64,000 nt of DNA from an uncultured candidatus Porisulfidus sp. Its GTDB lineage: Bacteria > Pseudomonadota > Gammaproteobacteria > Poriferisulfidales > Oxydemutatoraceae. A program made the translations under genes and the position numbers. The DNA lies in contig OZ244052.1 of the NCBI GenBank assembly GCA_965215125.1, positions 1,408,001 to 1,472,000 on the forward strand. The letters run 5' to 3'. Every line of letters begins with the position of its first letter. Position 1 is the stretch's first letter. The notes under the pieces were generated by a model. It saw only the letters and a list, made by a program, of their open reading frames with translations, searched no databases and was not told the DNA's origin. Positions 42,656 through 59,203 of this stretch are shown here, piece by piece.

Positions 42656-42687
42656 CGGGTATGCTCGCTTGATGAAACACCTCAGCG

Positions 42688-43227
42688 TCAATCAAGCGCA
42701 TAAGGAATTTTGTCTCGTTTGGGTATTTGACCGGTGCGTTTGATTTCTCTGACTTTTTCCAAAACCAGTCTGCGTTTTTCGGCAGAGAGGTAATCGACGA
42801 AGAGTTTACCTTGCAGGTGATCCATTTCGTGTTGTATGCAGACGGAGAGCAAGCCTTCGGCTTCAATTCGTATCGGTTTTCCAAGCTCGTCTTGTGCTTC
42901 AACGACAATGCGTTCAAAGCGCTGTATATCGGCGAAAATGCCGGGTACCGAGAGACAACCTTCGTTCATTATTTCTTGTCCGTTTGCTTCGGTGATTTTT
43001 GGGTTGACTAAGCAAATCGGTTGGTCTTGATCTTGAGAAGTATCCGCAACCAGTATAGATTTTTGAATATCCACCTGTGTTGCCGACAAACCGACACCAT
43101 CGGCATCATACATCGTTTCCAGCATATCGTTTTTGATGCGTATGATTTCCTTGTCAAAGACCTCAACGGGTGCAGCCTTTTTACGAAGGCGCGGGTCGGG
43201 GTAAGTGATTATCGGTAGCTTGGCCAT
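42688..43227 (-). CDS. def: Peptide deformylase
   Basis: GVGLSATQ, EGCLS, QHEMDHL. Confidence 0.97.
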   Translation of the reverse strand: MAKLPIITYPDPRLRKKAAPVEVFDKEIIRIKNDMLETMYDADGVGLSATQVDIQKSILVADTSQDQDQPICLVNPKITEANGQEIMNEGCLSVPGIFADIQRFERIVVEAQDELGKPIRIEAEGLLSVCIQHEMDHLQGKLFVDYLSAEKRRLVLEKVREIKRTGQIPKRDKIPYALD

Positions 43228-43449
43228 AAAAGCGATTATACATTACTTGGGTGTCGTACAGATAGTGAGCGATGTTAATTGATGAGGAGGGGAATGTACC
43301 GGCACTGCACTTTTTGCAGAATACGCTGCGACCACCCCGTCAGGCTAACGCCTGCCCCCTACGAGGAGGAGAATTGTTCGCCTCTACACATGTCGGTTAC
43401 ATTGTGGTTCCATTTTTCAATAGTCCAAAATGAATCGGTACCGCAAAGC

Positions 43450-43578: not shown

Positions 43579-44088
43579 ATGAGCGACTATATTAAATATG
43601 TATTGACCTTTATCGTGTTGGGTGCACATTCCGTTGCTGCGAATGTCAACACAAAAATCGATGTATCTTCGGATATTGCCGTCTGCATCGCAACCGCCGC
43701 ACACCAGTACGAATTAGACCCGTTGTTGCTGTTAGCCGTTAAATATGTAGAGACTGCCGATAGAACGGATACACCTATTCGCTACAACAAAAACGGTTCG
43801 TGGGACATTGGCTTGATGCAAATCAACTCGGTATGGAAGGACACACTCGATCGGCACGGTATCAGTTCTGCCGACTTGGAAATCCCTTGCAAAAATATCG
43901 CAGTGGGTGCGTGGATATTGGCCGACAAGATTAAGCAGAAAGGTATCTGGGAGGGCGTGGGTTCGTACCATTCAAACACGCCGCACTTGTCGCAAAGGTA
44001 TAGAGACAAAGTCAAGGCGGTTTGGGATGAGTTAAATAAGCTCAAGTGGTCTTTGGGCGAAGGGCTGGACAGCCGAAGCACGCAATGA
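43579..44088 (+). CDS. Lytic transglycosylase (VirB1/PilT-like)
   Basis: AGGAG RBS; VET catalytic Glu, DIGLMQINS, VGSYHS. Confidence 0.88.
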   Translation: MSDYIKYVLTFIVLGAHSVAANVNTKIDVSSDIAVCIATAAHQYELDPLLLLAVKYVETADRTDTPIRYNKNGSWDIGLMQINSVWKDTLDRHGISSADLEIPCKNIAVGAWILADKIKQKGIWEGVGSYHSNTPHLSQRYRDKVKAVWDELNKLKWSLGEGLDSRSTQ

Positions 44089-44098
44089 AGCAGACTCA

Positions 44099-44872
44099 TT
44101 GTATGCGAGTGGGATGGTGAAAATGGGTATAGGTATCATAGCACCTCGTGCAGAGTCTATATCAAAAGCTAAGATTGCTTTGGGTGGTGCCATCGTTATT
44201 TTCGTAGTTGCAACCGTTGCTATTTTTATCGGCTTTCAATCGGAGATACGACCGTCTACCGACGGCAACATCGAGATCGGGTTTGAGACTATGAACGAGA
44301 CACCTACGGTTTATCCGTACGACAACTTTGATAGCAGTGCCGGCATAGAGGCCGATAACACAGTTAGTGTTTCCGATTTCGGCAACCGTCTGGATGCTGC
44401 AGACGAGCGTTTGAGTTCGATCGAACAATCGGTATCGCAGATGCAGTCGGAGTTATCGCATGACAGAGAGATCGGCGCGGAAACATTGCAAGGTTTATAT
44501 TCGCAAGTGCAATCCTTAACAGGTCGGGTTGCGGCGTTGGCAAGTGCCGACGACACTTTAGATGCCTCCTTGAAGCAGATCAAAACCGTCATGCAAAAAA
44601 TGCAAGTAGATCAACATCAAGATTCGCGAAACGAATTGCCGGTTGCCGGGTTGAAGTTATTAAGTGTTTCTATTTGGGACGACGGTGCGGTGGCAATCGT
44701 ATCTTTGGGCAACAGAAAAACCGGTTTGTCGGTCGGTAATTTTTTCGCCGGTCTAAAAGTTGAAGACATATCGGTTGCCGAGCAATCGCTCACTTTATAC
44801 GAACCTGCCACCGATAGGCTCTACACGCTTTATGCAGACGCAATCGTTTATAAGGAGGTTCACACGCAATGA
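44099..44872 (+). CDS. ICE-type membrane-anchored coiled-coil protein
   Basis: N-terminal TM, coiled coil, beta-rich C-terminus; lies before the TIGR03759-like gene as in MPF-G clusters. Confidence 0.55.
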   Translation: MYASGMVKMGIGIIAPRAESISKAKIALGGAIVIFVVATVAIFIGFQSEIRPSTDGNIEIGFETMNETPTVYPYDNFDSSAGIEADNTVSVSDFGNRLDAADERLSSIEQSVSQMQSELSHDREIGAETLQGLYSQVQSLTGRVAALASADDTLDASLKQIKTVMQKMQVDQHQDSRNELPVAGLKLLSVSIWDDGAVAIVSLGNRKTGLSVGNFFAGLKVEDISVAEQSLTLYEPATDRLYTLYADAIVYKEVHTQ

Positions 44873-45255
44873 TAATAAAACAACGCGTCAAGCTATATTT
44901 AATCGCCGGGCTATCCGCAGCGGGTATGTTGCTCTTTATGTTCGGTGCATCTTACAGCACAGTCAATTTCCGCAGTCTGGAATTGAGTCCTTTGCAGAAA
45001 AATCAAATGCATCATCTAGGCTTGCAAGAATCCGAGATGCGCGAGTTTTTGCTCAAGCGAGAGATATACAAGGGTTATATAGACACCGATAGACTGTCGC
45101 CCCACGAAATATTGGGGATACTATCGGAGGACGAAGCCGAACGGCGGCAATACGCACGAGCGGCAGCGCGTATCCGTTCACAGCTGATAGACAACACCAG
45201 AAATTTTGAGACGCTTTATTTACAGGAAGTGTCTCGTTTATCAACCCCGGGCTAG
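44869..45255 (+). CDS. TIGR03759-like (PFL_4693) ICE protein, short form
   Basis: GL...E...F, LSPHEILGI....EAERRQYAR. Confidence 0.65.
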   Translation: MIIKQRVKLYLIAGLSAAGMLLFMFGASYSTVNFRSLELSPLQKNQMHHLGLQESEMREFLLKREIYKGYIDTDRLSPHEILGILSEDEAERRQYARAAARIRSQLIDNTRNFETLYLQEVSRLSTPG

Positions 45256-45281
45256 CCCGGCATAACTTAAAGGAGATTATT

Positions 45282-45872
45282 ATGTTTTCAAAATTAAATC
45301 TATACATCGTTGCTTTGTGTGCTTTTTTGATGACGGTACCGATAGGGGCGCAACCGGTACAGGATTCCACCGACTTGCCGAAGATGCAAGAGGGTGACTT
45401 CAAGGCGATCAAACCTACAGAATCTGTGTCTACCTTGACGAAGGCGAATATTAAGGAGATCTTCAAAGGGTTACAAGCCACAGTAGACAATAGTGGAGAT
45501 TACAGTGCCTATCACGAAGATTTGCAATATAAAGTGATAGAACATTCCGGTAATCTGGCAATCCAAAAATATACTCCGCGCGTGACATGTTCTAAATACC
45601 TGAACCCACAGGGCATGGCTATGTGTTCGGCAGATAACAAAGCATTAGCAGGAAAGACTTCTGTCGCGTGTGTTATTCCCAAAGGAACTAAATCGTGTAA
45701 GAGCTCTAAAGGAGGGTATTACGAACTAACTTTGAGCGGCTTAATAGTAGCGGAAAGCTATGTCCGATGTTCCTATGTTCCGATAAGTCCGGGTGCTCAA
45801 AGATTATATTGCGGTTATGAGCCATATCCGCAAAAGGTTTATATATGGAACGCACCGGTTGTAGCACGATGA
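45282..45872 (+). CDS. Secreted Cys-containing hypothetical protein
   Basis: AAGGAG RBS, signal peptide, six Cys in the mature part. Confidence 0.65.
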   Translation: MFSKLNLYIVALCAFLMTVPIGAQPVQDSTDLPKMQEGDFKAIKPTESVSTLTKANIKEIFKGLQATVDNSGDYSAYHEDLQYKVIEHSGNLAIQKYTPRVTCSKYLNPQGMAMCSADNKALAGKTSVACVIPKGTKSCKSSKGGYYELTLSGLIVAESYVRCSYVPISPGAQRLYCGYEPYPQKVYIWNAPVVAR

Positions 45873-45953
45873 GGCGGCATTGTGCTCCGTTATTTTATCG
45901 GCGGATGTTGACAGTGCGTTCCGGTTTGGGCTTTAGAGATAGGAATCGTTTTT

Positions 45954-46457
45954 ATGCGTTGCGCACCGTGGTTTCACCCAAGAGGCTTTGCAAAGAGAAT
46001 AGTGGCGGATATTCGCACGCACATCGTACTGCTAGCGATGCTACTAACACCAATAACGATCGCCGGTTGCCACGCGCATCACGGCATGTCCTTTGAACAG
46101 GATAGACCGATGAACACGAGTGTAGAGCAAGATTTTTTTCGGCAGCCGTTGGTGCCGCAACAAGCGGCGATGCAGTTGCAGTCCGATCGTGTTTTGCAAG
46201 CGGATCATACCGAAGAGGAAAGCTACTTAAAAAATATCGTGCAGCTGCTGGAGCAATCCAAAATGCTGGCGGCGAATGCCGAGCGGCAAGTACAACCGCA
46301 GCAACGCAAGCTATTCAATTACGGTGCTTTTGAGATAGACATAGATACCGTCATCTTCGCGATCAAACGCTATCTTGCGGCAGACGATTATACGCCGCGC
46401 GGCTTTCAGGCACTGCCGCCGGCTCGATTAAAGGCTCGCTACTCCGATGTTGAATAG
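45954..46457 (+). CDS. RAQPRD-family ICE protein
   Basis: E...L..IV.LL, FNY.....DI..V...I.RYL....PR; position at head of MPF-G core. Confidence 0.65.
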   Translation: MRCAPWFHPRGFAKRIVADIRTHIVLLAMLLTPITIAGCHAHHGMSFEQDRPMNTSVEQDFFRQPLVPQQAAMQLQSDRVLQADHTEEESYLKNIVQLLEQSKMLAANAERQVQPQQRKLFNYGAFEIDIDTVIFAIKRYLAADDYTPRGFQALPPARLKARYSDVE

Positions 46458-46704
46458 CAGTTATAACGGCGACGCTTTTTTATCCGCCAGCGGCATTTCC
46501 ATGGGTGACTTGGAGTTGTTGTTTTCTACGGTGTTGAGCATTTTAATTTTTATAGGGTTCGTTGCTAGGTTGATGAGGTTGCGTAGAGGGTTGCAAAACG
46601 GTGTGTTGTCCGAGGCGGGTTTTTTGTTCGGAGTGTTGCATGCATTGACTTTAATCATTTTGGTTATGGCTTTTATTCATTATTTGGTTTCAACCCGGCT
46701 ATAG
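46447..46704 (+). CDS. TIGR03758-like (DUF3262) small membrane protein
   Basis: AF..ASG, two TM helices, synteny. Confidence 0.65.
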   Translation: MLNSSYNGDAFLSASGISMGDLELLFSTVLSILIFIGFVARLMRLRRGLQNGVLSEAGFLFGVLHALTLIILVMAFIHYLVSTRL

Positions 46705-46711
46705 GTGTTTT

Positions 46712-47065
46712 ATGTCACGGATTAAATTATTACTTCAAACTACGCTCGGCATGATTGCGCTGTTGTCGCTGTGGTCGGCAGCGCAGGCACAACTGCCGAC
46801 CCCGCCGAGTTTCGGCGGCGGTAGTAGCGGTGATTTTTGGGAGTATTTCAGGAATGCGCTGATAGCGATTTTCACGGTGGCTGCGGTGGCTATGCTGATT
46901 ATTGCGGTACTGGGTGCGAGCGGCGGATTATTGAATGCGCTGAAGAAGGGGCGTGAGCAGGGCGAGTGGGGGCATTTCGCAGTTACGGTTATTGCGACGA
47001 TTTTGGTTTTGGTGCTGATTATCTTCGGCACAGTCCAGATTATTCAGTATGTAAACGAGATATAA
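46712..47065 (+). CDS. TIGR03745-like (DUF2976) putative pilin
   Basis: Signal, AQAQLPTPP, two TMs separated by G.WG.F. Confidence 0.72.
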   Translation: MSRIKLLLQTTLGMIALLSLWSAAQAQLPTPPSFGGGSSGDFWEYFRNALIAIFTVAAVAMLIIAVLGASGGLLNALKKGREQGEWGHFAVTVIATILVLVLIIFGTVQIIQYVNEI

Positions 47066-47068
47066 AGC

Positions 47069-47422
47069 GTGGATATTAGCGTGGAGATTGATATGAAGCC
47101 TGCCGATTTCTTAGACGACGAACCGTTGATGTTAAAAGGTTGCACAGGTTCGGAACTGAGCTTTGTGATTGTAGTTGCCGTCATCGTATGGCTGTTGCTA
47201 TCGGCTCTGCTGAGCTTTGTATTTTGGAATATATTTGTAGGGCTTATTGTGTTTATGGTGATGACACCTTTCACGGTGTGGTTGGTTGCCGTTTGGTATA
47301 GCCGTCTCAAGCGTAGCCGTCCTAGACATTGGCATTTACAATACTTGGCGGATCGCTTTTATTGGACCGGCTATTTTCACCAATGCCGACATGTCGGCAA
47401 TTTCAAAGCCACCGGATCTTAG
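47069..47422 (+). CDS. TIGR03750-like (DUF3487) conjugative-region membrane protein
   Basis: L..EP...KGCT.SEL, two TMs, RLKRSRP. Confidence 0.78.
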   Translation: MDISVEIDMKPADFLDDEPLMLKGCTGSELSFVIVVAVIVWLLLSALLSFVFWNIFVGLIVFMVMTPFTVWLVAVWYSRLKRSRPRHWHLQYLADRFYWTGYFHQCRHVGNFKATGS

Positions 47423-47426
47423 GCAA

Positions 47427-48080
47427 ATGAATCGTTACCACTCGGCAGAAGCCAATTTGGTTGCACACATTAAGACCTTGAGGCTGATCGGTGCGGGTTT
47501 GTTCGCCGTATGTCTGCTACTACTCGCTGCGGTGTTTTGGGTTGCAAGAGAGCATCGTTTATCGTTGCCTCCCGAGTTGCGTTTCGGTTCCAAGCTCACC
47601 ACCGGCACGATAGAACCGCACGAGATTTATTTGTTCGCCGGTTCGGTTTATCAACAAATTTATTTGTGGTTGGAAGACGGCAGCAAAGATTTCACCGGCA
47701 ACATACAAAGGCTTCGTTATTTGATAACCGATGATTTCCATCGTTTCTTAATGCAGAAAAACAACGATTTGGCTAAGCGCGGAGAGCTCAAGGGGCGTAG
47801 ACGCAGTTTGCAACCGGCAAACATCTACCAGCACAGCTTGGTTCGCCGGACCGCCGGGAACGCATGGCTCGTGCAGTTGGATTTGATATTGAACGAGAGC
47901 TTGAACGGCATCAAAATCAAAGACGGCATCACCATTCGCGAACATATTCCGGTAGTCTACAAAGATATCAACTCGGCGTATAACCCATGGGGTTTGTTGC
48001 TAGATGCGCCGGCAAAGCCGTTGATTCGTATTCCTGCCGGCGATGTTGAACAAATACAACAGGTTAAAGGAAGTAAGTAA
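47427..48080 (+). CDS. TIGR03746-like (DUF2895, PFL_4703) protein
   Basis: AHI.TLR, PPELR.GS, FA..V.QQI..W..DG..D, GEL..R.R, NPWGL.LD. Confidence 0.82.
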   Translation: MNRYHSAEANLVAHIKTLRLIGAGLFAVCLLLLAAVFWVAREHRLSLPPELRFGSKLTTGTIEPHEIYLFAGSVYQQIYLWLEDGSKDFTGNIQRLRYLITDDFHRFLMQKNNDLAKRGELKGRRRSLQPANIYQHSLVRRTAGNAWLVQLDLILNESLNGIKIKDGITIREHIPVVYKDINSAYNPWGLLLDAPAKPLIRIPAGDVEQIQQVKGSK

Positions 48081-48931
48081 TGATGCGCGAAAATTTCTTT
48101 ATCTTTCTGCTGTTGTTGGCAAACAATTATCTGCACGCCGGTGAGACACTACAAATTGTTTATAAAGACGAGCCTATTCAAGTGCAGCTACGGGTCGGAA
48201 GCGAGCGACGTTTTATGCTGAAATCGGCAGCATCGGTCAAGGTCGGCATACCCAGATCGTTGCGTAATAAATTATCGGTAACCACGATAGGCTCACAGGT
48301 TTGGTTGCTTGCCGAGCAAAGTTTTGAAGACCAAAAAATCATTTTCAAAACATCCGACACCGAGATGCCCGACACCAAGATAGTGCTGATACTCGGTGCC
48401 GGCTATGACGATCCACCGGGAGAACCTATTTTGTTAAGTACCGATACCGGCACCGCGACATCTCAAGTCGAGGTTGCCGATTCAAACTGCGATATCGGTA
48501 TGGTCGAACTCGCTCGCTATGCGTTGCAATGGGCTTATGCGCCGCGCCGGTTATTAACCGGCAACCCGTGCATTACCGCAACCGATTACCCCAAAGATCT
48601 CCTAGATATTATGCGCTGCTTGAGGGTCAACGAACCTATTTGCGGCGGCGGGGTAATTGCCAAACCTGTTGCGGCGTGGCGGACTACCCAACTTTATGCG
48701 ACTTTGCTGGAACTTAAAAACACCTTGCAGACCACCGTTGCCTTAGACCCTCGCACAATCGTCGGAAACTTCAAAGCGGCAGCACTCGCACATTCTAAAC
48801 TGGAACCTGCGAATACCGAGAAGTCGGTGACTGCGTTGGTCGTTATCGGCAATAAACCGTTGCGCCGTTCCATTCCCGAATCGCGCTGGTTGGATAGAAC
48901 ACCGACCGATGCGCGCACACCTAAACTTTAA
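48080..48931 (+). CDS. TIGR03749-like (DUF3438, PFL_4704) protein
   Basis: PI.V.L.VG.ER, L.RYA.Q..YAP.RL, P.AAWR, LDPR...G. Confidence 0.82.
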   Translation: MMRENFFIFLLLLANNYLHAGETLQIVYKDEPIQVQLRVGSERRFMLKSAASVKVGIPRSLRNKLSVTTIGSQVWLLAEQSFEDQKIIFKTSDTEMPDTKIVLILGAGYDDPPGEPILLSTDTGTATSQVEVADSNCDIGMVELARYALQWAYAPRRLLTGNPCITATDYPKDLLDIMRCLRVNEPICGGGVIAKPVAAWRTTQLYATLLELKNTLQTTVALDPRTIVGNFKAAALAHSKLEPANTEKSVTALVVIGNKPLRRSIPESRWLDRTPTDARTPKL

Positions 48932-48938
48932 GGATACG

Positions 48939-50255
48939 ATGAAGACCAACCCCTTAGTTTATATTCTGATTGCGGTCATCGGCATTGTCGCACTGCTGAT
49001 GTCGCTGGCAAACGTTCAAGACGATGATTTTTCGGACTCGCAAACTACTTCGTCCGAACCGTCGCAATCGCCCGGTTATCCGGCGGAAGATAGCGACAGC
49101 CCTTCGGAAGCCGTTAAGGCAGTAGGTTCTCAGATCAATGCACTGCGAAAAGACCAATCGGCTTTTAAGGAGCAAATCAATCAAACAGTGAGTCGAATTC
49201 ATAACGAGTTGCAAACACTGCACGGCGAGATTAGAAAACTCGCAAATCGGCAGAACAGCACTGCCCGTCAAATCAATGTGCAGCAAACGAATATACCCGA
49301 GCGTGTCGGCAACCGGCAACCCGATATATCGAAACCGGGGGATGAGCCGATTGCACCGTACCACGAGAAGGTACCCGATTATTCGCCGTCGGGTGTTTCA
49401 ACGCAGCCTGCTTGGTTATGGATAGAGGATCAAAGTGTCATAACACCCGATGACGATGGATCGGAACATCTTGCCGGTGGTGTGTCCGAGTATTTGGATA
49501 TAGATGCGATATCGGCAATCGCGGCATCCGACGACGAGGTGGTGGCACACACCATTCCGCCTGCCACCGTCATACAAGGTGTCACATTGACCGCAGCGAT
49601 AGGACGTTTGCCGGTGCGCGGACAGTTGAACGAACCCTGGCCGATTAAAGTTATCAGCACGATGGAAGGTTATGCACCCAACGGTTATGCCGTTGATGCC
49701 GCACGGATGATTTGGGACGGCAGGGCATTCGGCGACGCTAATTTTGAATGTGTGCGAGTTGTTTTGACGCGGGTCACGGCAGTTTTGCCGGGCAAAGTAG
49801 TCAGTTTTGTGGAAGCCTCCGATAGCGAAAAAGGCTTGGGGTATTTGAGCGACGCTTACGGTCATCCTTGTCTTAAAGGCAAGCTGGTTAGCAACGCTGC
49901 TAAGCAAATGACCGCCGAGGCGATTTTGGGTATTGCACAAGGCATAGGCGAAGGTTATGCCGACACCCAGCGTACTCGTACGGTCAGCCCCGAAGGCAAC
50001 ACCATAGAGCGTGTTACCGGTGAAGAAGTGCGAGTGCTCATCGGTCAAGGCTTTGCCAGATCGGTCGGCAATGTCAGGAATTATTTGGCATCCAGATACG
50101 ATGTATGGGATGCGATTTATGTGCCTCCCGAGCGGGAAGTAGTAATCAATGTAGACCAACCGTTGGAGTTTATTTATGACAGTAATAAAAAGCTATACGA
50201 TGTTTCAGCCTTTGCTTTTAAGGTCGGTGATGATACTGGCACTCGTCTTGATTGA
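48939..50255 (+). CDS. TIGR03752-like (PFL_4705; VirB10-like) protein
   Basis: N-terminal TM, coiled coil, TIP, TA.IGR.P..G, G.A.GD....CV, GYLSD..G.PC..G, DAIYVPP. Confidence 0.8.
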   Translation: MKTNPLVYILIAVIGIVALLMSLANVQDDDFSDSQTTSSEPSQSPGYPAEDSDSPSEAVKAVGSQINALRKDQSAFKEQINQTVSRIHNELQTLHGEIRKLANRQNSTARQINVQQTNIPERVGNRQPDISKPGDEPIAPYHEKVPDYSPSGVSTQPAWLWIEDQSVITPDDDGSEHLAGGVSEYLDIDAISAIAASDDEVVAHTIPPATVIQGVTLTAAIGRLPVRGQLNEPWPIKVISTMEGYAPNGYAVDAARMIWDGRAFGDANFECVRVVLTRVTAVLPGKVVSFVEASDSEKGLGYLSDAYGHPCLKGKLVSNAAKQMTAEAILGIAQGIGEGYADTQRTRTVSPEGNTIERVTGEEVRVLIGQGFARSVGNVRNYLASRYDVWDAIYVPPEREVVINVDQPLEFIYDSNKKLYDVSAFAFKVGDDTGTRLD

Positions 50256-50559
50256 GGGGTGCGGTTCCAAATTGCCGGGTCACGATGGCAACCGCCGCCC
50301 GATGTTGGAATTATATAGGGCGCATAGTGCGAGTGCGAACGGCATTGACGGGAAATTGCGCCACGGTTCTGCCGATTTAACCGCTTATACCAGAGATGCA
50401 AACAACGAATTGGAAGTGCTTTTTCCGTTGTTGCCCAACCCCAAGATCGTTTTATTCGTATTCCCGCATATCGTTAAAGGTGCGCCGGTGCCGGGTTATG
50501 CAACCGGTTTCAGCTTGTACGAGAAAGATCATTACGCACTGCCTGCAGAGCATTTCTGA
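50176..50559 (+). CDS. TIGR03751-like conjugative-region lipoprotein (start probably 50200 or 50230)
   Basis: Lipobox-like EGC, YTR.A.NE....FP.LPNP....FVFPH, PVPGY.T.F..YE..HYALP.E. Confidence 0.85.
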   Translation: MTVIKSYTMFQPLLLRSVMILALVLIEGCGSKLPGHDGNRRPMLELYRAHSASANGIDGKLRHGSADLTAYTRDANNELEVLFPLLPNPKIVLFVFPHIVKGAPVPGYATGFSLYEKDHYALPAEHF

Positions 50560-53360
50560 TGTCTATTTTTAATTTGTGGGAAAAGCATTTCGGTCTTTAT
50601 AGAGGCGACAGGGAAGAGATGCCCGCTTATGTTCCTAAAGATGTAGCTCCTTATTTTTATTGGGACGGTAGCGGGCAATCTCATCTCAAGCAGCGAGATT
50701 ATCTGAAGGTTGCCGACCCCGGACAGAAAAGCCGATGCCTTTATTCGGCACCGGGGTTTTTGGATTATCTAGGTCCGCGTGCCGACCTCAACGGCTGCGA
50801 TATTTTGCTGAGAAATCTAAGCAATGTGGGGCGATTTTTTGAACTAATACCGGCGGGTATCGAAGGACAATCGGATGCTTATGTGAAGGCATTATTCAAT
50901 AAGGCGGTGCCGGCTTTTTCCAATGTGATACCGGAGAACGAAAAGCATCTATGGTTTTTGCAGTTCTTCTTGGAAGACGAAGCCTCGCTCGATTCGGTTC
51001 ACGAACAGCTAAAGGCTTATGTCGGCAAGCAATTGTCGGAAAATAGGTTCACGCAGAGCTGGCTGGAGCAGTTGCGTATGCATTTGGAGCAAGCGAGCCA
51101 ACCGCAAGGTTTGTTCTTTGACCGGCAGGTTTCCGGGGGTGTATGGCGCGCCCGCATACGCCGAGTGCGTCTTTGTTTGTGGCGCGACGGTGGCAACGAC
51201 AAAGAAGGCGATGCGATAGCGGAAGTATCCGAGAAATTAAAAAATGCTCTGGCGCAAGCGAATATCAAGTTGATTGCCGATACGCCGGCAGGTTTGTGTC
51301 GTTGGTTGACACAATGGTTTGCTCCGACATCTGCCGACGATGCTCGGCCTTCGCCTTCGCAGTGGCAGACTGCACAAGTCGGATTCGGTTTGCTCGACGA
51401 CGACATGGGTGATTTGGTGAGATGTGCGTGTCAGGGTGTTTATCCGGGTAGCGACGCAAACGGCAACTGGTATTTTCGCAAACAAGCGACGCGCTTCGTT
51501 TGTTTTGATGGCTTGGTGGACGAACCTGCCATCGGCGTGTTGACCGCCGAACAAAAGGTAGGAATACAACGACGCGTGCTGTGGGACAATATGCCGCCCG
51601 GCACCACCTTGTCTTTGACGATACAGTTCTGTTCTCAAACCGAAATTTCCGAGCATATACGACAACTGATGCAAAACTCCAAAGGGGGTTCGGCGGAAGC
51701 CAATGCCAAATACGAGATGGCACACCGCGCACAAGAATATATGGCAGCCGGTCATAAACTTTATAGGGTCTACGGTGGTGTCTTCGTGCGCGGCGAGGAT
51801 GTGGAACGATTGAAATCCAATGCGATACAAGCTACATCTATTTTGAATGCACATGGCTTGCGTGTCGTGTTGCCGCAATACGATCTGATTGCCCAGGATT
51901 GTTTTTTGCGCGCTCTGCCTTTTTCTTACGACCGCAACCATGATCGTAGACCTTATATACGTCGTAGCCGACTTTGGTATAGCGAGCATATCCAGCGCAC
52001 CGCGCCGGTTTGGGGGCGTAGCACCGGCACCGGCAACTCCGGATTTTTGTTTTGGAATAGAGGGGCGCAACCGCTCACTTTTGATATTTTGAATCCCGAC
52101 GATAGAAAACGCAATGCGCACTTATTGATGTTAGGACCTACCGGATCGGGCAAAACGGCAACGTTGATCTATATGTTGCTACAGTTGATTGCGGTACACC
52201 GCCCGCGGCTTTTTGTCATTACTTCGTTGCCGACTTTCGGTTTGTTTGCCCAATATCTAGAAAGTCTGGATGTGTGCGTCAACTATGTACGTATCGGCGA
52301 GATGGATGTGAGCTTGCCGCCGTTTTCGGACGCGCATAAATTGTTGCTTTCGGTGGACGACGACGGTGCCGACGGACGCGATGCAGACGATGTGTCGCAC
52401 GATCGTTTAGCCGAAATGGAAAGCATCGCCAAGCTGATGATCACCGGGGGCGATGCACGCGAGGAGGCGGATCTGAGACGCGCCGATATGAACATGATTA
52501 GGCGCGCGATCATCATCGCTGCCGAGACCACCCAACGCCAAAATCGGCAAACCAGAACCTCCGATGTGGTCGCTGCGATGCGCGCTTTGGCAAGCGGTAA
52601 ACAAAGCGGCGAAGAGATATTACTGGACGCTTCGTCTGCGAGCAAACTCATTGCGTATGCCAATGCGATGGATTTGTTTTGTCAGGGCATGACCGGGCAG
52701 ATATTTAATCGCGAAGGTAGCTTGTGGCCGGATGCCGATGTTACGGTGATAGAGTTGGGATGCTTTGCCAAAAAAGATTATCAAGCACAGCTATCGGTTG
52801 CGATTTTGAGCTTGCTCAATCAAATCAACGAGACTGCCGAGCGTAGTCAATACGAGGACCGACAGCTACTCACCGTAATAGACGAAGCCCACATATTGCT
52901 TAAGAACCCATTGGTTGCTCCGATGCTCAACAACATTATGGCAATGTGGCGGACTTTCGGGGCTTGGCTGTGGTTGGCAACGCAGACATTGGCACAATTT
53001 CCGGAGCATGCCCGAGAAATGTTGAACCAACCGGAATGGTTGATTACGCTTTCTATGGATCAAGGTGAAGTCGAGCAGGTTGCTCGCTTTAAGCATTTAT
53101 CCGAAGACCAGAGGTCGCTGTTGTTGTCGGCAAAAAAAGCGTCGGGCGACTATGTGGAAGGTGTGGTCGTCTCCGATGTATTGCTGACTTTGTTTAGGAG
53201 TGTCGTGCCTGCTTTGTCGTTGGCATTGGCACAAACCGAAAAATCCGAGAAGGCGGTGCGTGCCGAATTGATGAGGCAACATCGCTGTAGCGAATTGGAT
53301 GCGGTTTACCGAATCGCAGCGGCTATTAAACAAAAACGTGCCGACGGAGGTGTACGATGA
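50559..53360 (+). CDS. VirB4-like conjugative transfer ATPase (TIGR03744, PFL_4706 family)
   Basis: FWNRG..P..FD, Walker A GPTGSGKT, Walker B IDEAH, MWR.FGAWLWLATQ, LALAQTEK.EKA.R. Confidence 0.92.
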   Translation: MSIFNLWEKHFGLYRGDREEMPAYVPKDVAPYFYWDGSGQSHLKQRDYLKVADPGQKSRCLYSAPGFLDYLGPRADLNGCDILLRNLSNVGRFFELIPAGIEGQSDAYVKALFNKAVPAFSNVIPENEKHLWFLQFFLEDEASLDSVHEQLKAYVGKQLSENRFTQSWLEQLRMHLEQASQPQGLFFDRQVSGGVWRARIRRVRLCLWRDGGNDKEGDAIAEVSEKLKNALAQANIKLIADTPAGLCRWLTQWFAPTSADDARPSPSQWQTAQVGFGLLDDDMGDLVRCACQGVYPGSDANGNWYFRKQATRFVCFDGLVDEPAIGVLTAEQKVGIQRRVLWDNMPPGTTLSLTIQFCSQTEISEHIRQLMQNSKGGSAEANAKYEMAHRAQEYMAAGHKLYRVYGGVFVRGEDVERLKSNAIQATSILNAHGLRVVLPQYDLIAQDCFLRALPFSYDRNHDRRPYIRRSRLWYSEHIQRTAPVWGRSTGTGNSGFLFWNRGAQPLTFDILNPDDRKRNAHLLMLGPTGSGKTATLIYMLLQLIAVHRPRLFVITSLPTFGLFAQYLESLDVCVNYVRIGEMDVSLPPFSDAHKLLLSVDDDGADGRDADDVSHDRLAEMESIAKLMITGGDAREEADLRRADMNMIRRAIIIAAETTQRQNRQTRTSDVVAAMRALASGKQSGEEILLDASSASKLIAYANAMDLFCQGMTGQIFNREGSLWPDADVTVIELGCFAKKDYQAQLSVAILSLLNQINETAERSQYEDRQLLTVIDEAHILLKNPLVAPMLNNIMAMWRTFGAWLWLATQTLAQFPEHAREMLNQPEWLITLSMDQGEVEQVARFKHLSEDQRSLLLSAKKASGDYVEGVVVSDVLLTLFRSVVPALSLALAQTEKSEKAVRAELMRQHRCSELDAVYRIAAAIKQKRADGGVR

Positions 53361-54670
53361 AAGCGAGCATTTTAAGGAAGTTTATTTGTGGGCTTTGTGT
53401 GCCGTTGCTGTTTGCAACCGCCGACTTAAACGCACAGAGTAACTTGATTGACAACCTCAAGGATTATATAGAGTTTAGCTCAAACCGATCGCCGCCGGCA
53501 CCGCCTAGAGAAAGCAGTCTTTATGTGGGTGCCGAACTTAATCTGGATGCACGGCTTGCGTGCAGTAAATTCGATCCTAAGCTGTCGGTGGATTATGCAC
53601 TCACCGGGCTTAAAGAAACGATGAGCACGATAGAATCTATACCCAAAACGGTAATCTCGTCGTTGCCGGGCGTGGTGTTTTGTCGCGCCTTGCCGGGTGT
53701 TTGCGAATTGGCACAAGAATATACCGCGCGTTTTGAAAATCGTTTTAATCTTGCCGTTAAAAGCTGCGAGCAGATGATTGCCGATGCAACGCAAGGGCGC
53801 AACCCGTATCAAGATGTTTTTAATGCGACCGTTGAAAACGCATGGAATCGGGGGCAACAAGCAAATAAAACGCCGGCGCAAGTGCAGGAGGAGATGTCAG
53901 AGGCTAAAGATCAAGGCATCACTTGGGTCGGCAACGAGAAACACGGCGGGCGCGGGCAACGTCAAATTAGACCGGTGAGACACACCATCGCCGCCGGTTG
54001 GTGCATTGCCAACGGTGAGACCCACACCGATTGCGAGACCTCAGCGGCGGAAAATCAATATACTAAAACCTGGCGTGCGGTTAGCGAATTGAAGCAATGG
54101 ATTACCGATATCGTCGGCGATATCGGCTTTTGGATTTATCGAGGCGCGCCGGCACCGCAAAGCTATCCGGGTTTGGGTCTCAATGCCAAAGTCAGCGAAC
54201 GCGAACCATTGATCAAAGCAAAGCTGGAACAGTTGGTACAAACACCGGCGGATCAAATCTATGATATAGATCCGCAGGATCTGGAGTTCCTAAGTTCAAG
54301 CTCGCAAGAAATGTTGCCACAAATAGTGGCAGCTTTACAGGTTGATCTAGATAAGGCGTGGTTATCGGAACGGCTTGCCAATGAAATCGCATCTGCACAG
54401 GTTTTGGACGAGGCTTTGCTTGCCCGACGGTTATTGCTGATAGGTTCTAAGGAACCCAATCTCTATAAGCACAAGAGATTTATCTCCGAAGAGGTGGGGC
54501 AAGCGATAAAGCGTCTGGAAGACGAGATCGATCAGTTGTTGATGGAAGCCGAAGCGCGCGGCAAAGTTGTCTCGGATTTGGTCATCCGTATTCTGGAAAG
54601 AGCGGAGCAAAGACAAAGCGCACGCAACGATATCTCGCCCGATGTGCCGCACACGCGCCTACAGCCGTAA
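53357..54670 (+). CDS. TIGR03755-like (PFL_4711) ICE protein
   Basis: C.KFDP, SLP.....RA.PG, KSCE.M, GITWVG...GG..Q..I, PG.GL, RLA.EIA, ARR.LL.G..EPN. Confidence 0.82.
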   Translation: MKASILRKFICGLCVPLLFATADLNAQSNLIDNLKDYIEFSSNRSPPAPPRESSLYVGAELNLDARLACSKFDPKLSVDYALTGLKETMSTIESIPKTVISSLPGVVFCRALPGVCELAQEYTARFENRFNLAVKSCEQMIADATQGRNPYQDVFNATVENAWNRGQQANKTPAQVQEEMSEAKDQGITWVGNEKHGGRGQRQIRPVRHTIAAGWCIANGETHTDCETSAAENQYTKTWRAVSELKQWITDIVGDIGFWIYRGAPAPQSYPGLGLNAKVSEREPLIKAKLEQLVQTPADQIYDIDPQDLEFLSSSSQEMLPQIVAALQVDLDKAWLSERLANEIASAQVLDEALLARRLLLIGSKEPNLYKHKRFISEEVGQAIKRLEDEIDQLLMEAEARGKVVSDLVIRILERAEQRQSARNDISPDVPHTRLQP

Positions 54671-54685
54671 CAGGCATGATGTGCG

Positions 54686-56098
54686 ATGAGTGTCAGCCTG
54701 TCGGTATTTTCGGAATGGGAGCGAGCATTCACACTGTACGGTTGGCTGCTCAATAATTTTTTCACCGACATTTTATTTTCGTCGGGTATCGTGTTGGCAG
54801 TTATGATCGTCGCATTGTTCTCCGCTTGGTATAAGACGGCAGGTGCGGGCGGCGGAGATAAAGACACCAACCGCTCGCTGGAGATGCGCACGGTAATTGC
54901 CGTGCTTGTTTTGCTATTCGCTTTTTTTCCGATCTTCAGGATTGATGCAGTACAGGTTTTGGATCTATCGGGCGGCTGTCAAGAATACGGCAAAGGTACG
55001 GCGTTTGAGGAGATGACCGTCTTCGAGGACTTAAAACAAGAATTGATCGCCGACACCGACAATGTAAAAATCCCGTTGTTTTGGGCGTTGATACACAAAG
55101 TAGGTGCCGGCATTTATTATCAGATACTTGACGGGTTGGATTGCTTCACCGATTGGCGCGCAGTAGAGACCATTATCAGAACGAACAAGATACAAGACCC
55201 GGCGATATTGAGCGAATACTATCAATTCGCATCCAAATGCTACGGGCAGGCGCGCTATCAATATCAAACCATAGGCTATCGAGGCGGCGGTGTGCCGCCT
55301 TCGGCGGATGACCTTGCCTATTTGGGTAGCCGTTATTATTTAGATACACCGAGCTATTACGATGCTTTTCTATTACCGACTCGACTGCAACGTTGGCAAC
55401 CCAATTTGGTGAGAAGCTGCTCGGCGTGGTGGCTAGGAGACGGAACGAATAAAGGGTTGAGGGAGATTTTGTTGACGCAGGCAACGGCACAACTACCGCC
55501 TGTAGAAACGGCAGGTATTTTAGGATCGGGTTCACGCGATGTAGAAGATCGTATTATCAAAGCGATGCTCAAATCAAACCCGCTGGAACTCGGTCATTCG
55601 GGCGCGGCGTATTCCGCTGCCGCTAACTCGGCTCAATCTTCGGCTAAGGTTTTACATGTCGGGGATGCGGCTTATATGTCGGGTTCGGGCTTGACAGGTT
55701 TGTCCGAGCAAGTGTCGGCAGCTTTCAATCACACTTATTTACTCAAGCGTATTGCTTCATACATACAACCGATTATTTTACTGGCACTGTACTTTTTTAT
55801 CCCTGTGTTTTTGCTCGCAACCGGCTTAAGGTTGATAGGTGTTCTGTATTATGCGGCATGGATTTTAGGCATCCAAGCGATGCCGATGATCTATGTTTTG
55901 GTGGCGGCATTGGATGCCAAAGTGACCGAGAGCCTTTATCGAGGGATCGGTCTGTTCAATGTCACTATGGATCGCTTGATTATCGCTTATGTTTTTTCGT
56001 ATTTACCGCTGATTTTTTCTGCTGCCTATTTCATAGTGCTGGTTTTGGCAATCAAAAAAGGTTCGGCACTCATAGAACATCATCGGGCAATCGCATGA
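54686..56098 (+). CDS. TraG N-terminal-domain membrane protein (MPF-G)
   Basis: LYGW, K.PL.W...H, I.DP.....Y.F...CY..AR, GS.YYL..P.YY, C..WW....GLR..L. Confidence 0.82.
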   Translation: MSVSLSVFSEWERAFTLYGWLLNNFFTDILFSSGIVLAVMIVALFSAWYKTAGAGGGDKDTNRSLEMRTVIAVLVLLFAFFPIFRIDAVQVLDLSGGCQEYGKGTAFEEMTVFEDLKQELIADTDNVKIPLFWALIHKVGAGIYYQILDGLDCFTDWRAVETIIRTNKIQDPAILSEYYQFASKCYGQARYQYQTIGYRGGGVPPSADDLAYLGSRYYLDTPSYYDAFLLPTRLQRWQPNLVRSCSAWWLGDGTNKGLREILLTQATAQLPPVETAGILGSGSRDVEDRIIKAMLKSNPLELGHSGAAYSAAANSAQSSAKVLHVGDAAYMSGSGLTGLSEQVSAAFNHTYLLKRIASYIQPIILLALYFFIPVFLLATGLRLIGVLYYAAWILGIQAMPMIYVLVAALDAKVTESLYRGIGLFNVTMDRLIIAYVFSYLPLIFSAAYFIVLVLAIKKGSALIEHHRAIA

Positions 56099-56107
56099 AG
56101 CTACTGA

Positions 56108-56418
56108 AAAAGTATTTCATGCACCGTAGGGGTGGCAGGCGCAATAGAACCGCCGTTTGTTGCAGTAGCACAAACGGCGTGACATTGTGCAGAACCTTGA
56201 CACATAGTACACATGTAAAGCCTTTTCATGGGATGGTTGTGGTGTATCTACACAAGTACAGTATCGGTACATTCCCCTCCTTCGGAGGGGTGGCAGGCGC
56301 AGCCTGACGGGGTGGTTGTGTCGTATCTGCACCGATTCATTCCCCTCCTTTGGAGGGGTGTCAGGCGTAGCCTGACGGGGTGGTTGTGTCGTATCTGCAC
56401 GATTTATACATTCATTCA
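56108..56418. repeat. Composite palindromic repeat inserted inside the T4SS cluster
   Basis: Two TTCCCCTCCTT(C/T)GGAGGGGTG..AGGCG.AGCCTGACGGGGTGGTTGTGTCGTATCTGCAC units plus the 5' module seen at 2965-3128. Confidence 0.85.
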
Positions 56419-56449
56419 TCGGCCCCACGGTTATATATTGGGTGCGTTG

Positions 56450-56890
56450 ATGCTGTGCGCGACTGCCGCCGGCGATGCGGGTTCGGTGCAGGATACTATC
56501 TCGGCATCGGCGACTGTTCGTATCTATAGCATAAAACCGAGCGAAATCTCAGGTATCTCGCGATTAAAGCAAGAACCGTCAATCTCCGATATACGGGTCA
56601 TAGATCTCTCGGTGATTCCCAAGATGGAGGCGGTGTTCGGTGCGTATGCAAACAACGAAATGAACGACTCGTCTATCGCCGAGATTAAAGCCTTGATTGC
56701 GCGATTGCCGCGCATACAGCTACAGGCATTAGCCGATGCACAAATGAACCTTTTTGATTTGCAGACTCGGTACGATGTTGAGATTGACGATCTTCCGGTG
56801 GTTGTTTTCGAGCAAAACAAAACCCGCTCTTTATACAAAGGCAACGATGTCTATCAAGGATTTCTACGATGGCAGCAATCAAAAAGATAA
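56450..56890 (+). CDS. TIGR03757/DUF1525-like ICE protein (start uncertain)
   Basis: V..L, Y.V..LPVVVF, Y.G.DV; directly upstream of TraU-like gene. Confidence 0.6.
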   Translation: MLCATAAGDAGSVQDTISASATVRIYSIKPSEISGISRLKQEPSISDIRVIDLSVIPKMEAVFGAYANNEMNDSSIAEIKALIARLPRIQLQALADAQMNLFDLQTRYDVEIDDLPVVVFEQNKTRSLYKGNDVYQGFLRWQQSKR

Positions 56891-58035
56891 GCAAATATAC
56901 GTTAATCACTTGTGTGTGGTTATGCTGCGCATTGCCCACACAGAGCTTAGCGGGTTTTAATACCGCACAGTTGATATATAGATCCATGCAAGTCAAGTGT
57001 TTGGATTGGCAAATCATCGGTTTGTGCTTTTGGTTGAAGTGTAGCCCTAAGTGCAGTATTAGAATCACTCCTAAAATATCACACTATCTACCCGACCTTA
57101 CGGTTACCAATAGTGCCGGTCAATGTCCTTGGCAAGAAGCGACATTGCTGTCGCTGAAGTCGCCGGTGAACATCGTCTCTCAACTCGCTGCAAAAGCAGT
57201 CGGTGGCAACCCCGGACAAGGTGGACGGTTGGGTCGCTATGCGATGAAGTTCAAAGACGCTATGGTAATAGGCAACCCCGCCGCTGCATTAGGTTCTAGA
57301 TTTAATGTGCGCTTTTTGTGTAAAAGTCAAAGCAAGCCGATGCATATCTATTTCAATTCCAGACAGGGACTCAATGTTCTGACCTGGCGCGGCATCGACT
57401 TAAGTTCATTGCATGGCGTAGGCGGTACCGACTTGGACAGGATAGAAAGCTGGAAGCCCGGCAGCCGCATGGTCGGTAGAAGCGAGTCGTTGAACAATGG
57501 AATCATCGGCAACCTACCGATACTCGACAACGGTTGGGGAAGCATCTATCCGAGACGAGGCACCGTTTTAAACCCGAACGATGTCAAGGCAGGGGCAGTG
57601 ATTGCTCAACGAGCGATTGAAATCGTTGTCCGCAACCCCGACGGCTATCAAAACATCACCTCTGCCGAGGTTCACGACGACGAACAATGGGAACTGTGGG
57701 GAGATTCCGATGCCACAAGCTATCAACAATGCCACGCCTCGGGTGGGCAATGGCAACAAGAGATGCAAGATACGGCATTGGCGGTTAGCGGCCGATGTGT
57801 GCAACAACGCTCAGTGCAGCAACGCGATGTCGGCGACGAAGCAACCGACCGCTGGCAAATGATTTACCCCCAAGTAGAAAACGAATGTAGCTCGTTTGAC
57901 GAGCGCGCGCAACAAAAAGACGACTGGTCGGCAGGCAAAGCCTCCGCAGAGGCAGCCTACGGCTATAACTTCTGGCAAAAATATAAATGTTGTATCCCCG
58001 GAAGCGGTCGCTATCTATTCAGCATGGAGTGGTAG
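56869..58035 (+). CDS. TraU family (TIGR03756) protein
   Basis: CLDWQIIGLCFWLKC, HYLPD, IGNP, WG.IYPR.G, AV.AQRA, WQM.YP, W..Y.CC...G. Confidence 0.88.
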   Translation: MAAIKKISKYTLITCVWLCCALPTQSLAGFNTAQLIYRSMQVKCLDWQIIGLCFWLKCSPKCSIRITPKISHYLPDLTVTNSAGQCPWQEATLLSLKSPVNIVSQLAAKAVGGNPGQGGRLGRYAMKFKDAMVIGNPAAALGSRFNVRFLCKSQSKPMHIYFNSRQGLNVLTWRGIDLSSLHGVGGTDLDRIESWKPGSRMVGRSESLNNGIIGNLPILDNGWGSIYPRRGTVLNPNDVKAGAVIAQRAIEIVVRNPDGYQNITSAEVHDDEQWELWGDSDATSYQQCHASGGQWQQEMQDTALAVSGRCVQQRSVQQRDVGDEATDRWQMIYPQVENECSSFDERAQQKDDWSAGKASAEAAYGYNFWQKYKCCIPGSGRYLFSMEW

Positions 58036-58058: not shown

Positions 58059-58580
58059 ATGTCTAAGCAAGTCGGCGGTCGCAGTAGGGGTGTCGCCAGA
58101 ATAAGACCCGGTCAACCAGATTATCAAGACAACGGGTTACTCAGTGTAAAAGACTATCCTCGTGAATTGTTAGGCGAAGCACCTAAGGTTTTAGTTGGTG
58201 CAAAATCTTTAGAAAGTGCGCTAGAAAAAGTTGATGAATTTCTTTTAAGAGGACAAGAATGGAGAAGAGTTAATACACCACATGAACCAGTTATTATTCA
58301 CCGGCAATATATTCGCCATATATTGATGAAGCGAAGCCATCGGAGAGAAAGGTTTATTAACTGGATAATACCCACATTGACTGACCCGAATGAAATTTGG
58401 TTGACTGAATATAAAAATGGTTTCCGCCGTCACTTTATTAAGCTTTTTAAGGATAAAAAAAATATGCTGGTGATTGCTCAAGAGAACCTAAATGGTAGCT
58501 TGTTTTGGAACGCAATACCAGCAAGCAGAACAGGCTATATTGATGGGAGAAGGAAAGGTAAGCTGTTGTATAAAAAGTGA
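58059..58580 (+). CDS. PBECR2-like (Barnase/EndoU/ColE5/RelE-fold) nuclease
   Basis: HI...R...RERF...I.PTL.DP.EIW, RRHFIK, YID..RKGKLLY; resembles C-terminal extensions of phage MuF proteins; lower GC than the T4SS genes. Confidence 0.65.
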   Translation: MSKQVGGRSRGVARIRPGQPDYQDNGLLSVKDYPRELLGEAPKVLVGAKSLESALEKVDEFLLRGQEWRRVNTPHEPVIIHRQYIRHILMKRSHRRERFINWIIPTLTDPNEIWLTEYKNGFRRHFIKLFKDKKNMLVIAQENLNGSLFWNAIPASRTGYIDGRRKGKLLYKK

Positions 58581-59201: not shown

Positions 59202-59203
59202 AG

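Follow-up and report, generated by a model that had tools for sequence, protein, structure and literature searches.

A type IV secretion cluster of class MPF-G, fixed in a sponge-symbiont genus, that lacks coupling protein and relaxase

We analysed a 64,000-nucleotide stretch of DNA, here called the window, from an uncultured candidatus Porisulfidus species (contig OZ244052.1, positions 1,408,001 to 1,472,000; G000:C1:1408001-1472000 in our labels). At window positions 43579-58035 it carries 17 intact, tightly packed and collinear + strand genes for a type IV secretion system (T4SS) of mating-pair formation class G (MPF-G). The cluster is fixed in the genus, is under purifying selection and is not decaying, and it cannot conjugate by the known route, since it lacks a type IV coupling protein (T4CP) and a relaxase. 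It is probable, in our judgement, that the cluster is a functional, domesticated, non-conjugative machine. The complete proposal, namely that an MPF-G machine from an integrative conjugative element (ICE) was domesticated in the ancestor of the genus and is now a T4CP-independent contact organelle with a variable protein, we regard as an even bet.

The genome that contains the window (G000) is a closed single contig of 2,220,706 bases with a GC content of 46% and an estimated completeness of 99%; four congeneric species genomes (G001-G004) were available for comparison. Protein families were called from Pfam and NCBIfam scans, and transmembrane (TM)-like segments, signal peptides and lipoboxes were scored separately. 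An initial annotation had described an intact, tightly packed MPF-G set at this position, and the family scans bore this out. The cluster opens with a VirB1-like lytic transglycosylase with a signal peptide (43579-44088; Pfam SLT E=7e-10, NCBIfam IagB/TrbN-like). Its true start is at 43579: a longer open reading frame (ORF) from 43279 enters a repeat, and G003 has an in-frame stop within that extension. There follow a TraP/IcmG-DotF-like protein with an N-terminal TM segment and a coiled coil (44099-44872; NCBIfam TraP E=5.7e-5, IcmG/DotF E=0.005; one TM-like segment), a small TIGR03759-like protein (44869-45255; NCBIfam E=1.8e-6 and 27.5 bits, under the cut-off; phmmer E=1.3e-4 to the plasmid TIGR03759 protein), and a secreted protein of 196 aa that matched nothing in Pfam or NCBIfam (45282-45872). 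Downstream lie a RAQPRD-family protein (45954-46457; Pfam PF09686 E=2.3e-8, NCBIfam TIGR01690 E=5.4e-9), a protein with two TM-like segments in the slot of TIGR03758/DUF3262 (46447-46704; DUF3262 E=0.083, phmmer E=0.002 to the plasmid TIGR03758 protein) and the candidate major pilin, a VirB2-like TIGR03745/DUF2976 protein with a signal peptide and two TM segments (46712-47065; Pfam and NCBIfam), for which the ratio of nonsynonymous to synonymous substitution rates (dN/dS) was 0.08-0.09.

The core channel genes come next: VirB3-like TIGR03750/DUF3487 (47069-47422; Pfam and NCBIfam), VirB8-like TIGR03746/DUF2895 (47427-48080; Pfam E=2.6e-40), VirB9-like TIGR03749/DUF3438 (48080-48931; Pfam and NCBIfam), VirB10-like TIGR03752 with a TrbI domain (48909-50255; Pfam and NCBIfam) and the TIGR03751 lipoprotein of the outer-membrane complex (50176-50559; NCBIfam E=6.8e-21, lipobox-like sequence). 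The TIGR03746 frame was listed from 47286, and its likely start is at ~47427, relatives aligning only from residue 45-51 on. The VirB4-class ATPase (TIGR03744, PFL_4706; 50559-53360) scored 855.5 bits, the cut-off being 520.6, and is both the sole ATPase of the cluster and the sole TIGR03744-class gene in the G000 genome. Its alignment has invariant columns at G526-T533 (GPTGSGKT) and D775-H778 (DEAH), which we take to be the Walker A and Walker B motifs. The cluster ends with a TIGR03755 periplasmic protein (53357-54670; NCBIfam E=1.1e-66), a polytopic VirB6-like inner-membrane protein with a TraG_N domain (54686-56098; Pfam E=3.5e-19; five TM-like segments), a 146-aa protein (56450-56890) and a TIGR03756/TraU-like periplasmic protein (56869-58035; Pfam TraU E=1.8e-20, NCBIfam E=1.1e-47). 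The 146-aa protein had been labelled DUF1525-like, a label for which hidden Markov models (HMMs) gave no support; it occupies the slot of TIGR03757/DUF1525 in ICEs by position only, and it is kept in all five genus genomes. VirB2/3/6/7/8/9/10 analogue roles were assigned from Table 1 of a paper on ICEclc (PMC10018362).

As in class MPF-G, a TIGR03744 VirB4 is accompanied by the accessory families (TIGR03745, TIGR03746, TIGR03749, TIGR03750, TIGR03751, TIGR03752, TIGR03755, TIGR03756 and RAQPRD) in canonical order, with E values of 7e-7 to 1e-66 for these families, all under the curated NCBIfam cut-offs. The gene order is collinear with that of an annotated Pseudomonas veronii plasmid and of an ICE in G004. 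With the VirB4_CagE profile of class MPF-T, whose cut-off is 643, the ATPase scored 83 bits, and the accessory proteins belong to MPF-G families; descent from MPF-T components is thus not supported.

In the plasmid, TraD and a four-TM TIGR03747 protein are located between the TIGR03759/SLT block and RAQPRD; the ICE of G004 likewise has its T4CP there, in agreement with what the initial annotation gave as the normal position of the T4CP. IceD4 and TIGR03747 of ICEclc lie in the same place, and each is essential for transfer (PMC10018362). The corresponding slot in the window holds the 196-aa ORF alone. The absence of T4CP and relaxase, which the initial annotation had reported for the stretch itself, extended to the closed genome in profile, tblastn and HMM searches, and neither a nearby integrase nor an att repeat was found. 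The T4CP profiles TIGR03743 and PF12696 had no match in G000, and PF02534 and PF10412 gave only sub-threshold P-loop matches (FtsK, a HerA-like ATPase, an ExeA-like protein, DinG and UvrB). A tblastn search of G000 with the T4CPs of three relatives reached E=0.67 at best, and a custom HMM built from 12 T4CPs of relatives, run on all stop-to-stop frames in G000 with a length of 100 aa or more (3,460 frames), ranked FtsK first (24.5 bits) and VirB4 second (19.2 bits). For TIGR03747/DUF4400, tblastn of G000 with two proteins gave a best E of 0.87, no family-profile search having been made. The relaxase profiles TIGR03760, PF07514, PF03432, PF08751 and PF03389 found nothing in G000; MOBV, MOBC, MOBT and MOBB were not searched. 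Three Phage_integrase matches occur in the genome, at 0.26, 0.86 and 1.83 Mb, and none lies within 350 kb of the cluster at 1.45 Mb, serine and DDE recombinases not having been searched as ICE integrases. No att-like repeat was found at the locus, where the direct repeats that span the cluster all belong to dispersed host repeat families.

The same families served as a positive control, in that they detected TraD (748 bits), MobH (205 bits against a cut-off of 200) and TIGR03747 in the ICE of G004. PF12696 was negative in four of the five genus genomes, those without the ICE, and neither a MobH relaxase nor a T4CP was found in G000, G001, G002 or G003. PF02534 was negative in all five, but because it missed the TraD of the G004 ICE as well it is a weak test for T4CPs of this type. 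Every attribute of a self-transmissible ICE that we looked for (T4CP, relaxase, integrase with att sites, TIGR03747) went undetected in G000, and so did a coupling protein that would recruit cytoplasmic effectors, as in an effector-translocating T4SS. A cognate T4CP, a relaxase or an integrase with att sites elsewhere in the genome, which the initial annotation had named as evidence against domestication, did not turn up in the closed chromosome.

The origin of the cluster is illuminated by the G004 genome, where a second MPF-G locus encodes a VirB4 of 49-51% identity. This ICE reads, in order, type IVb pilus ATPases, SLT, MobH, a DotF-like coiled-coil protein, a 131-aa protein, TraD, TIGR03747, RAQPRD and onward, with a tyrosine recombinase downstream; the slot that corresponds to 44099-44872 of the window is thus occupied by a DotF-like protein here too. 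The stand-alone cluster equals this gene string minus MobH, TraD and TIGR03747, and the G004 ICE shows its ancestral state. In a VirB4 tree of 53 sequences (quick LG+G4), the five stand-alone copies formed a clade (Shimodaira-Hasegawa-like approximate likelihood ratio support of 100) that was sister to the ICE copy of G004 (support 99), on long branches. An approximately unbiased test disfavoured a topology in which the stand-alone clade joins the other symbiont clusters and the ICE stays outside (p=0.018, for a group named after inspection of the tree). The VirB4 proteins of MPF-G plasmids were just 35-37% identical. Compared with MPF-G ICEs at large (ICEHin1056, ICEclc, pKLC102/PAPI-1 and the G004 ICE), the window cluster has the same families in the same order, including TIGR03744, RAQPRD, TraG_N and SLT, but is without TraD, TIGR03747, MobH, integrase, att sites and type IVb pilus genes. 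It differs from them further in being chromosomally fixed and vertically inherited in the genus, and in having a hypervariable secreted protein in the TraD slot.

Patchy presence among close relatives and relaxed selection had been named as signs of a decaying ICE, and we observed neither. VirB4 is present in all five species genomes of the genus (77-100% identity) and in none of 14 genomes from the other five genera of the family. All 17 genes occur in 5/5 genus genomes, in four of them at def-fmt, and tblastn recovered them at full length at this position in G003, G001 and G004; in G002, def-fmt was found on a different contig from the cluster. Pairwise Nei-Gojobori dN/dS was 0.04-0.25 for the machine genes (VirB4 0.08-0.09), as against 0.12-0.22 for the two flanking housekeeping genes (def 0.12-0.15, fmt 0.13-0.22), in comparisons that span dS values from ~0.15 to saturation (above 2). 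Across the genus VirB4 retained 76-96% identity, compared with 70-89% for fmt. Three in-frame stops flagged by script lie outside the true coding regions, in an over-long N-terminal extension or in the last few codons. Logan contigs from three runs in two studies, some possibly of the source sample, covered the whole cluster with 0-4 differences per listed piece and at the depth of the def-fmt flank. A complete channel without VirD4 that is kept under selection, as in T4CP-independent T4SSs, is therefore present. Beyond def, five sister-genus genomes and G002 have neither the T4SS nor the right-hand flank of the window; the insertion site is not definable because synteny past def is too scrambled. 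Two local duplications were seen beside otherwise complete copies: G003 has a duplicated TraU fragment and a second PBECR2 nuclease gene downstream of the cluster (L026 399-2346), and in G001 the TIGR03751/VirB4 junction is briefly duplicated in tandem (L027 9695-10005), with an extra VirB4 N-terminal fragment as the result.

The 196-aa protein that occupies the TraD slot has a signal peptide. A search of 5.8 billion proteins returned 24 homologs, all of 181-196 aa and 53-69% identical; the protein is genus-specific. An alignment of the window protein with 23 of the 24 homologs (the 181-aa P0008 was left out; 51-69% identity to the window protein) showed six invariant cysteines and a conserved N-terminal third, with variable inter-cysteine loops. 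From this alignment AlphaFold2 predicted a small beta-barrel with one helix (mean pLDDT, the predicted local distance difference test score, 79.9, and >90 at residues ~50-190). A conserved N-terminal segment (residues ~25-50) is disordered. Foldseek found no match to this model in the PDB at E<=0.001, the wide VIA-align search gave a best Z of 5.8, below the level that the tool considers meaningful, to generic 8-stranded barrels (avidins, fHbp and the TbpB C-lobe), and an ESM Atlas search with the protein returned no usable match. The part of the gene for the mature protein (~45401-45800) is a hypervariable cassette: nucleotide identity between G000 and G003 fell there with sharp edges to 57-68%, against 87-96% along the cluster, and dS of the gene between these two genomes was 1.4-1.8 as compared with 0.2-0.3 in neighbouring genes. 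The nearest allele to that of G000 was the one in G001, and the nearest to that of G003 the one in G004, which is the opposite of the order given by VirB4 and fmt. We read this as allele exchange or as long-lived allele classes, a pattern that is typical of exposed proteins.

Related machines occur in other lineages. Database records labelled 'Ca. Porisulfidus', 'Ca. Oxydemutatoraceae' and 'Arenicellales bacterium' contained VirB4 proteins 40-44% identical to ours, in a search that used two peptide motifs from this clade and is therefore biased in host range. Ca. Porisulfidus and Ca. Oxydemutatoraceae are named as sponge symbionts in PMC12988363 and PMC11685487. In a sister-family genus (g7, labelled 'Ca. 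Porisulfidus', GC 62%) the cluster was present in 15 of the 16 genomes searched, in most of the loci examined between rluD-pgeF and rhodanese-purH. MobH was found in 0/16 g7 genomes. In 14/16, a T4CP-like gene of 519-523 aa occurs far from the cluster; in the three loci examined it lies between dapB and carA, and it has the look of a coupling protein that became fixed among housekeeping genes. In genome G036, for example, a lone 519-aa T4CP-like gene (L041 5908-7467; also L042 and L043) with a T4SS-DNA_transf match of 54 bits sits between dapB and carA-carB. Arenicellales-labelled genomes gave a distant T4CP-like gene of ~820 aa in 23 of 25 cases and a weak MobH match in 1/25. The lack of a relaxase is common to all these MPF-G clusters, and that of g7 likewise lies amid housekeeping genes. 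Unlike the window cluster, those of g7 and the Arenicellales go with a T4CP-like gene elsewhere in the chromosome, have TraU before VirB4, lack RAQPRD as well as a homolog of the 196-aa protein, and show no detectable SLT. Relaxase-less, chromosomally anchored MPF-G machines hence recur in these symbionts, and of the three lineages only the genus of the window is without a T4CP. The g7 cluster opens with a TM/coiled-coil protein (L033 2652-3302) that evolves much faster than its neighbours, at 33-55% identity between species as compared with 67-83% for VirB4.

The view of the initial annotation that a channel was kept after the loss of DNA-transfer functions is supported by the absence, fixation and selection data; as to the exact function (export, adhesion or DNA uptake), we infer it. 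We propose that the ancestor of this sponge-symbiont genus domesticated an ICE-borne MPF-G machine. MobH, TraD, the TIGR03747 partner, the integrase and the att sites would have been lost, and the transglycosylase, the pilin, the VirB3/6/7/8/9/10-like components, the TraU-like and TIGR03755 proteins and VirB4 as single ATPase would have been kept. F-like systems deprived of their T4CP continue to assemble pili, so this machine, too, most likely builds a channel and pilus, and it would be unable to recruit cytoplasmic DNA or effectors. Its role, independent of a T4CP, may then be that of an organelle for contact with, or adhesion to, host cells or other bacteria, with the six-cysteine variable protein as its exposed, specificity-determining or exported component. 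This is our first choice because the pilin, the transglycosylase and the TraU/TIGR03755-type assembly factors are kept and the variable protein looks exposed, though for a pilus or contact mechanism involving that protein we see somewhat less than an even chance. Among T4CP-less MPF-T systems, Trw serves adhesion, Ptl the export of a periplasmic toxin and ComB DNA uptake. Bordetella Ptl, Helicobacter ComB, Bartonella Trw and Brucella VirB are likewise chromosomal, without VirD4 and relaxase, and kept for a non-conjugative job. They differ from the window machine in that the latter is of class G, with a sequence relationship limited to VirB4 and core folds.

The gene content also allows other uses. 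In a Ptl-like exporter, a Sec-delivered periplasmic substrate, here the 196-aa protein, would be moved across the outer membrane, as pertussis toxin is by the T4CP-less Ptl system of Bordetella. The signal peptide, the disulfide-type cysteines and the in-operon gene of the 196-aa protein agree with this, its hypervariability suggests extracellular exposure, and there is no T4CP that could recruit cytoplasmic substrates. Family and fold searches, however, related it to none of the known exported toxins or effectors, and a pure exporter would not need the full set of pilin and pilus-assembly genes, so that we hold this second choice to be unlikely. If, instead, a coupling factor had escaped our view, be it a divergent or non-homologous ATPase or a T4CP on an unassembled plasmid, the cluster could be an effector-translocating T4SS. 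A HerA-like ATPase at G000:C1:1356035-1358239 is an example of a candidate, the sister lineages pair relaxase-less MPF-G clusters with a distant T4CP-like gene (14/16 g7 and 23/25 Arenicellales genomes), and plasmids can escape metagenome-assembled genomes. We consider this quite unlikely, given that four T4CP families, three tblastn queries and the custom HMM all failed in the closed chromosome, that PF12696 was negative in the four genus genomes without the ICE, that the TIGR03747 partner is gone too, and that the HerA-like protein, inspected by eye, has no predicted TM anchor.

VirB4 is the single ATPase of the cluster, as it is in ComB, and ComEC is intact in 5/5 genus genomes, so uptake of DNA to ComEC, or DNA release, might be its task; the discordance of the 196-aa alleles with the species order would fit interspecies exchange and hence DNA exchange in the lineage. 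The ComB system of Helicobacter pylori, a T4SS that imports environmental DNA, is cited as an exaptation in PMC3548315. G000, on the other hand, has four secretins, one of them MshL-like and beside an ExeA-like ATPase, and a T4SS route to ComEC may be unneeded because these secretins could serve a conventional type IV pilus route. Release of DNA as in Neisseria requires TraD and MobH, according to the same paper, and G000 has neither; DNA uptake or release is to our mind distinctly unlikely. The stand-alone cluster might also work in trans as a helper for mobilisable elements or ICEs with their own relaxase and T4CP, and the genus does have a true, circulating MPF-G ICE, that of G004. That ICE nevertheless brings its own complete T4SS, G000-G003 contain no MobH or T4CP, and four other relaxase families were negative in G000, all of which makes a helper role improbable. 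Finally, the loss of the DNA-transfer genes and the insertion of host repeats and, in G002, of an 11 kb island into the cluster might be taken as marks of a functionless ICE remnant. Against such decay, the 17 genes are intact in all five species at dS values up to saturation, with dN/dS like that of def and fmt, and VirB4 is better conserved than fmt across the genus; we give this explanation very little credence.

Several observations weigh against the domesticated contact organelle that we favour. All NCBIfam matches other than that of VirB4 were under their curated cut-offs, at E values of ~1e-6 to 1e-67, and because VirB4 alone passes its own the set must be called divergent. A cluster of host repeats separates TraG_N from the next gene, and an insertion of ~11 kb between TIGR03752 and TIGR03751 splits the operon in G002, although the 17 genes are present there; because of both, expression as a single operon is not guaranteed. 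No RNA is on record among the listed sequencing runs. A plasmid-borne T4CP may exist outside these metagenome-assembled chromosomes. The dN/dS of the loops of the 196-aa protein was 0.44-1.07, not clearly above 1, so that positive selection is not shown, and since its fold matches are only generic small barrels any role assigned to it is a guess.

T4SSs without a relaxase are frequent exaptations of conjugation, and as of 2012 only MPFT and MPFI had been shown experimentally to deliver proteins, both according to Guglielmini et al. (PMC3548315). Another paper by Guglielmini et al. (PMC3158045) states that MPFG occurs almost exclusively as ICEs, and isolated MOBless MPF-G examples may be contained in the supplementary tables of this 2011 paper. 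In literature searches that did not reach subscription papers and supplements, neither a T4CP-less MPF-G system nor one fixed in a symbiont was found described. For sponges, a 2016 review notes that T4SSs are present in symbionts (PMC4850255), and a 2025 study reports that 'ICE machinery' genes are enriched in sponge microbiomes, which it reads as gene transfer (PMC12659273). We tentatively suggest, with more doubt than confidence, that MPF-G machines were turned at least twice independently into vertically inherited host- or cell-contact organelles in sponge-symbiont gammaproteobacteria, and that this went furthest in the present genus, where TraD and TIGR03747 were replaced by a swappable, secreted, disulfide-locked barrel whose hypervariable alleles are exchanged between species. 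If this were true, a T4CP-independent T4SS with a swappable specificity module would be a kind not yet described, and part of the enrichment reported in PMC12659273 would reflect these organelles, not gene transfer. Counts of 'conjugation genes' in symbiont metagenomes are in any event not direct evidence of gene transfer. The maintained machine and the mobile ICE of its congener form a natural experiment that shows which genes were removed (MobH, TraD and TIGR03747) and which gene was substituted. Testable candidates for host or neighbour contact by uncultured sponge symbionts, together with a defined variable protein, are thereby on offer.

As to the surroundings, the initial annotation had placed the cluster between def and a nuclease/ATPase-PIN block beside a tRNA cluster, and family scans and tRNA positions agree. 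On the left lies def-fmt on the minus strand (41723-43227; def 42688-43227). On the right follow genes for a PBECR2 nuclease, a PIN protein and an AAA_15 ATPase, and then tRNA-Pro/Arg/His/Asn at 60764-61292. The PBECR2 nuclease-domain gene (58059-58580, + strand; Pfam PF18810 E=3.6e-20; GC content at third codon positions, GC3, 0.33) is an accessory outside the core machine and was found in only two of the genus genomes, G000 and G003. GC3 of the machine genes was 0.50-0.60, within ~2 standard deviations of the genome mean for long ORFs (0.476 +/- 0.063); the adjoining PBECR2, PIN and AAA_15 genes (GC3 0.32-0.37) are clearly foreign. The latter two, which lie between the T4SS and the tRNAs, form a low-GC pair on the minus strand at 58761-60604, in which the AAA_15 ATPase is NsnB/AriA-like (PADLOC 151 bits), and at this place G001 and G004 have an additional AAA_15 paralog of 40-42% identity.

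Host repeats inside the cluster had been noted and were confirmed at 56105-56420, where high-copy palindromic repeats of families D4 and D6 reach up to 181 genome copies (high-scoring segment pairs per position). The summed contig depth in this bin was 12401/15648/5219, against ~330/465/175 elsewhere. The shared upstream regulator motif of the initial annotation was not confirmed: the one shared upstream sequence found is a dispersed host repeat (43285-43360; ~18 genome copies by blastn-short; direct-repeat family D3), which likewise stands out in summed contig depth, and a promoter scan stood at chance, with 24 sites found and 26.4 expected. Terminator-like sites were mostly within genes. The G002 insertion (contig C14, L107/L029 joined coordinates 18362-29391) contains ORFs of 977, 192, 401, 598, 318 and 560 aa between intact operon halves, and our guess from the sizes and order of these ORFs is a type I restriction-modification island. 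At G000:C1:1488967-1501344, 17-29 kb past the window end, there are secretins of 585 and 714 aa with an ExeA-like ATPase directly after the second, an arrangement that is presumably an MSHA-type pilus locus.

Elsewhere in the window, 40307-41410 had no Pfam or NCBIfam match. A low-GC (~35%) SspBCD phosphorothioation defence module lies on the minus strand at 31639-38697 (PADLOC SspB 261, SspC 1201 and SspD 330 bits), followed by a DUF262/GmrSD_N protein with a weak SspE match. Nearby, at 28803-31384 (minus strand), an IetA-like AAA+ ATPase (PADLOC 243 bits) adjoins a 509-aa tetratricopeptide repeat protein in the place usually taken by the IetS protease, and a DUF1828/PDC-M24B-like gene is found at 27931-28713. 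Three tandem PD-(D/E)XK (PDDEXK_2) transposase-like paralogs occupy 21906-25833 on the minus strand, with IS110-family and DDE_Tnp_1_4 transposase genes on their flanks. On the + strand, the gene at 18257-19279 matched the candidate defence family PDC-S18 (452 bits) and has DUF5655/NucS-like domains, and a 764-aa ORF at 3780-6074 joins helix-turn-helix and rve integrase domains to a fatty-acid desaturase domain and to part of an ISL3 transposase, which makes it look like a chimeric frame across nested insertions.

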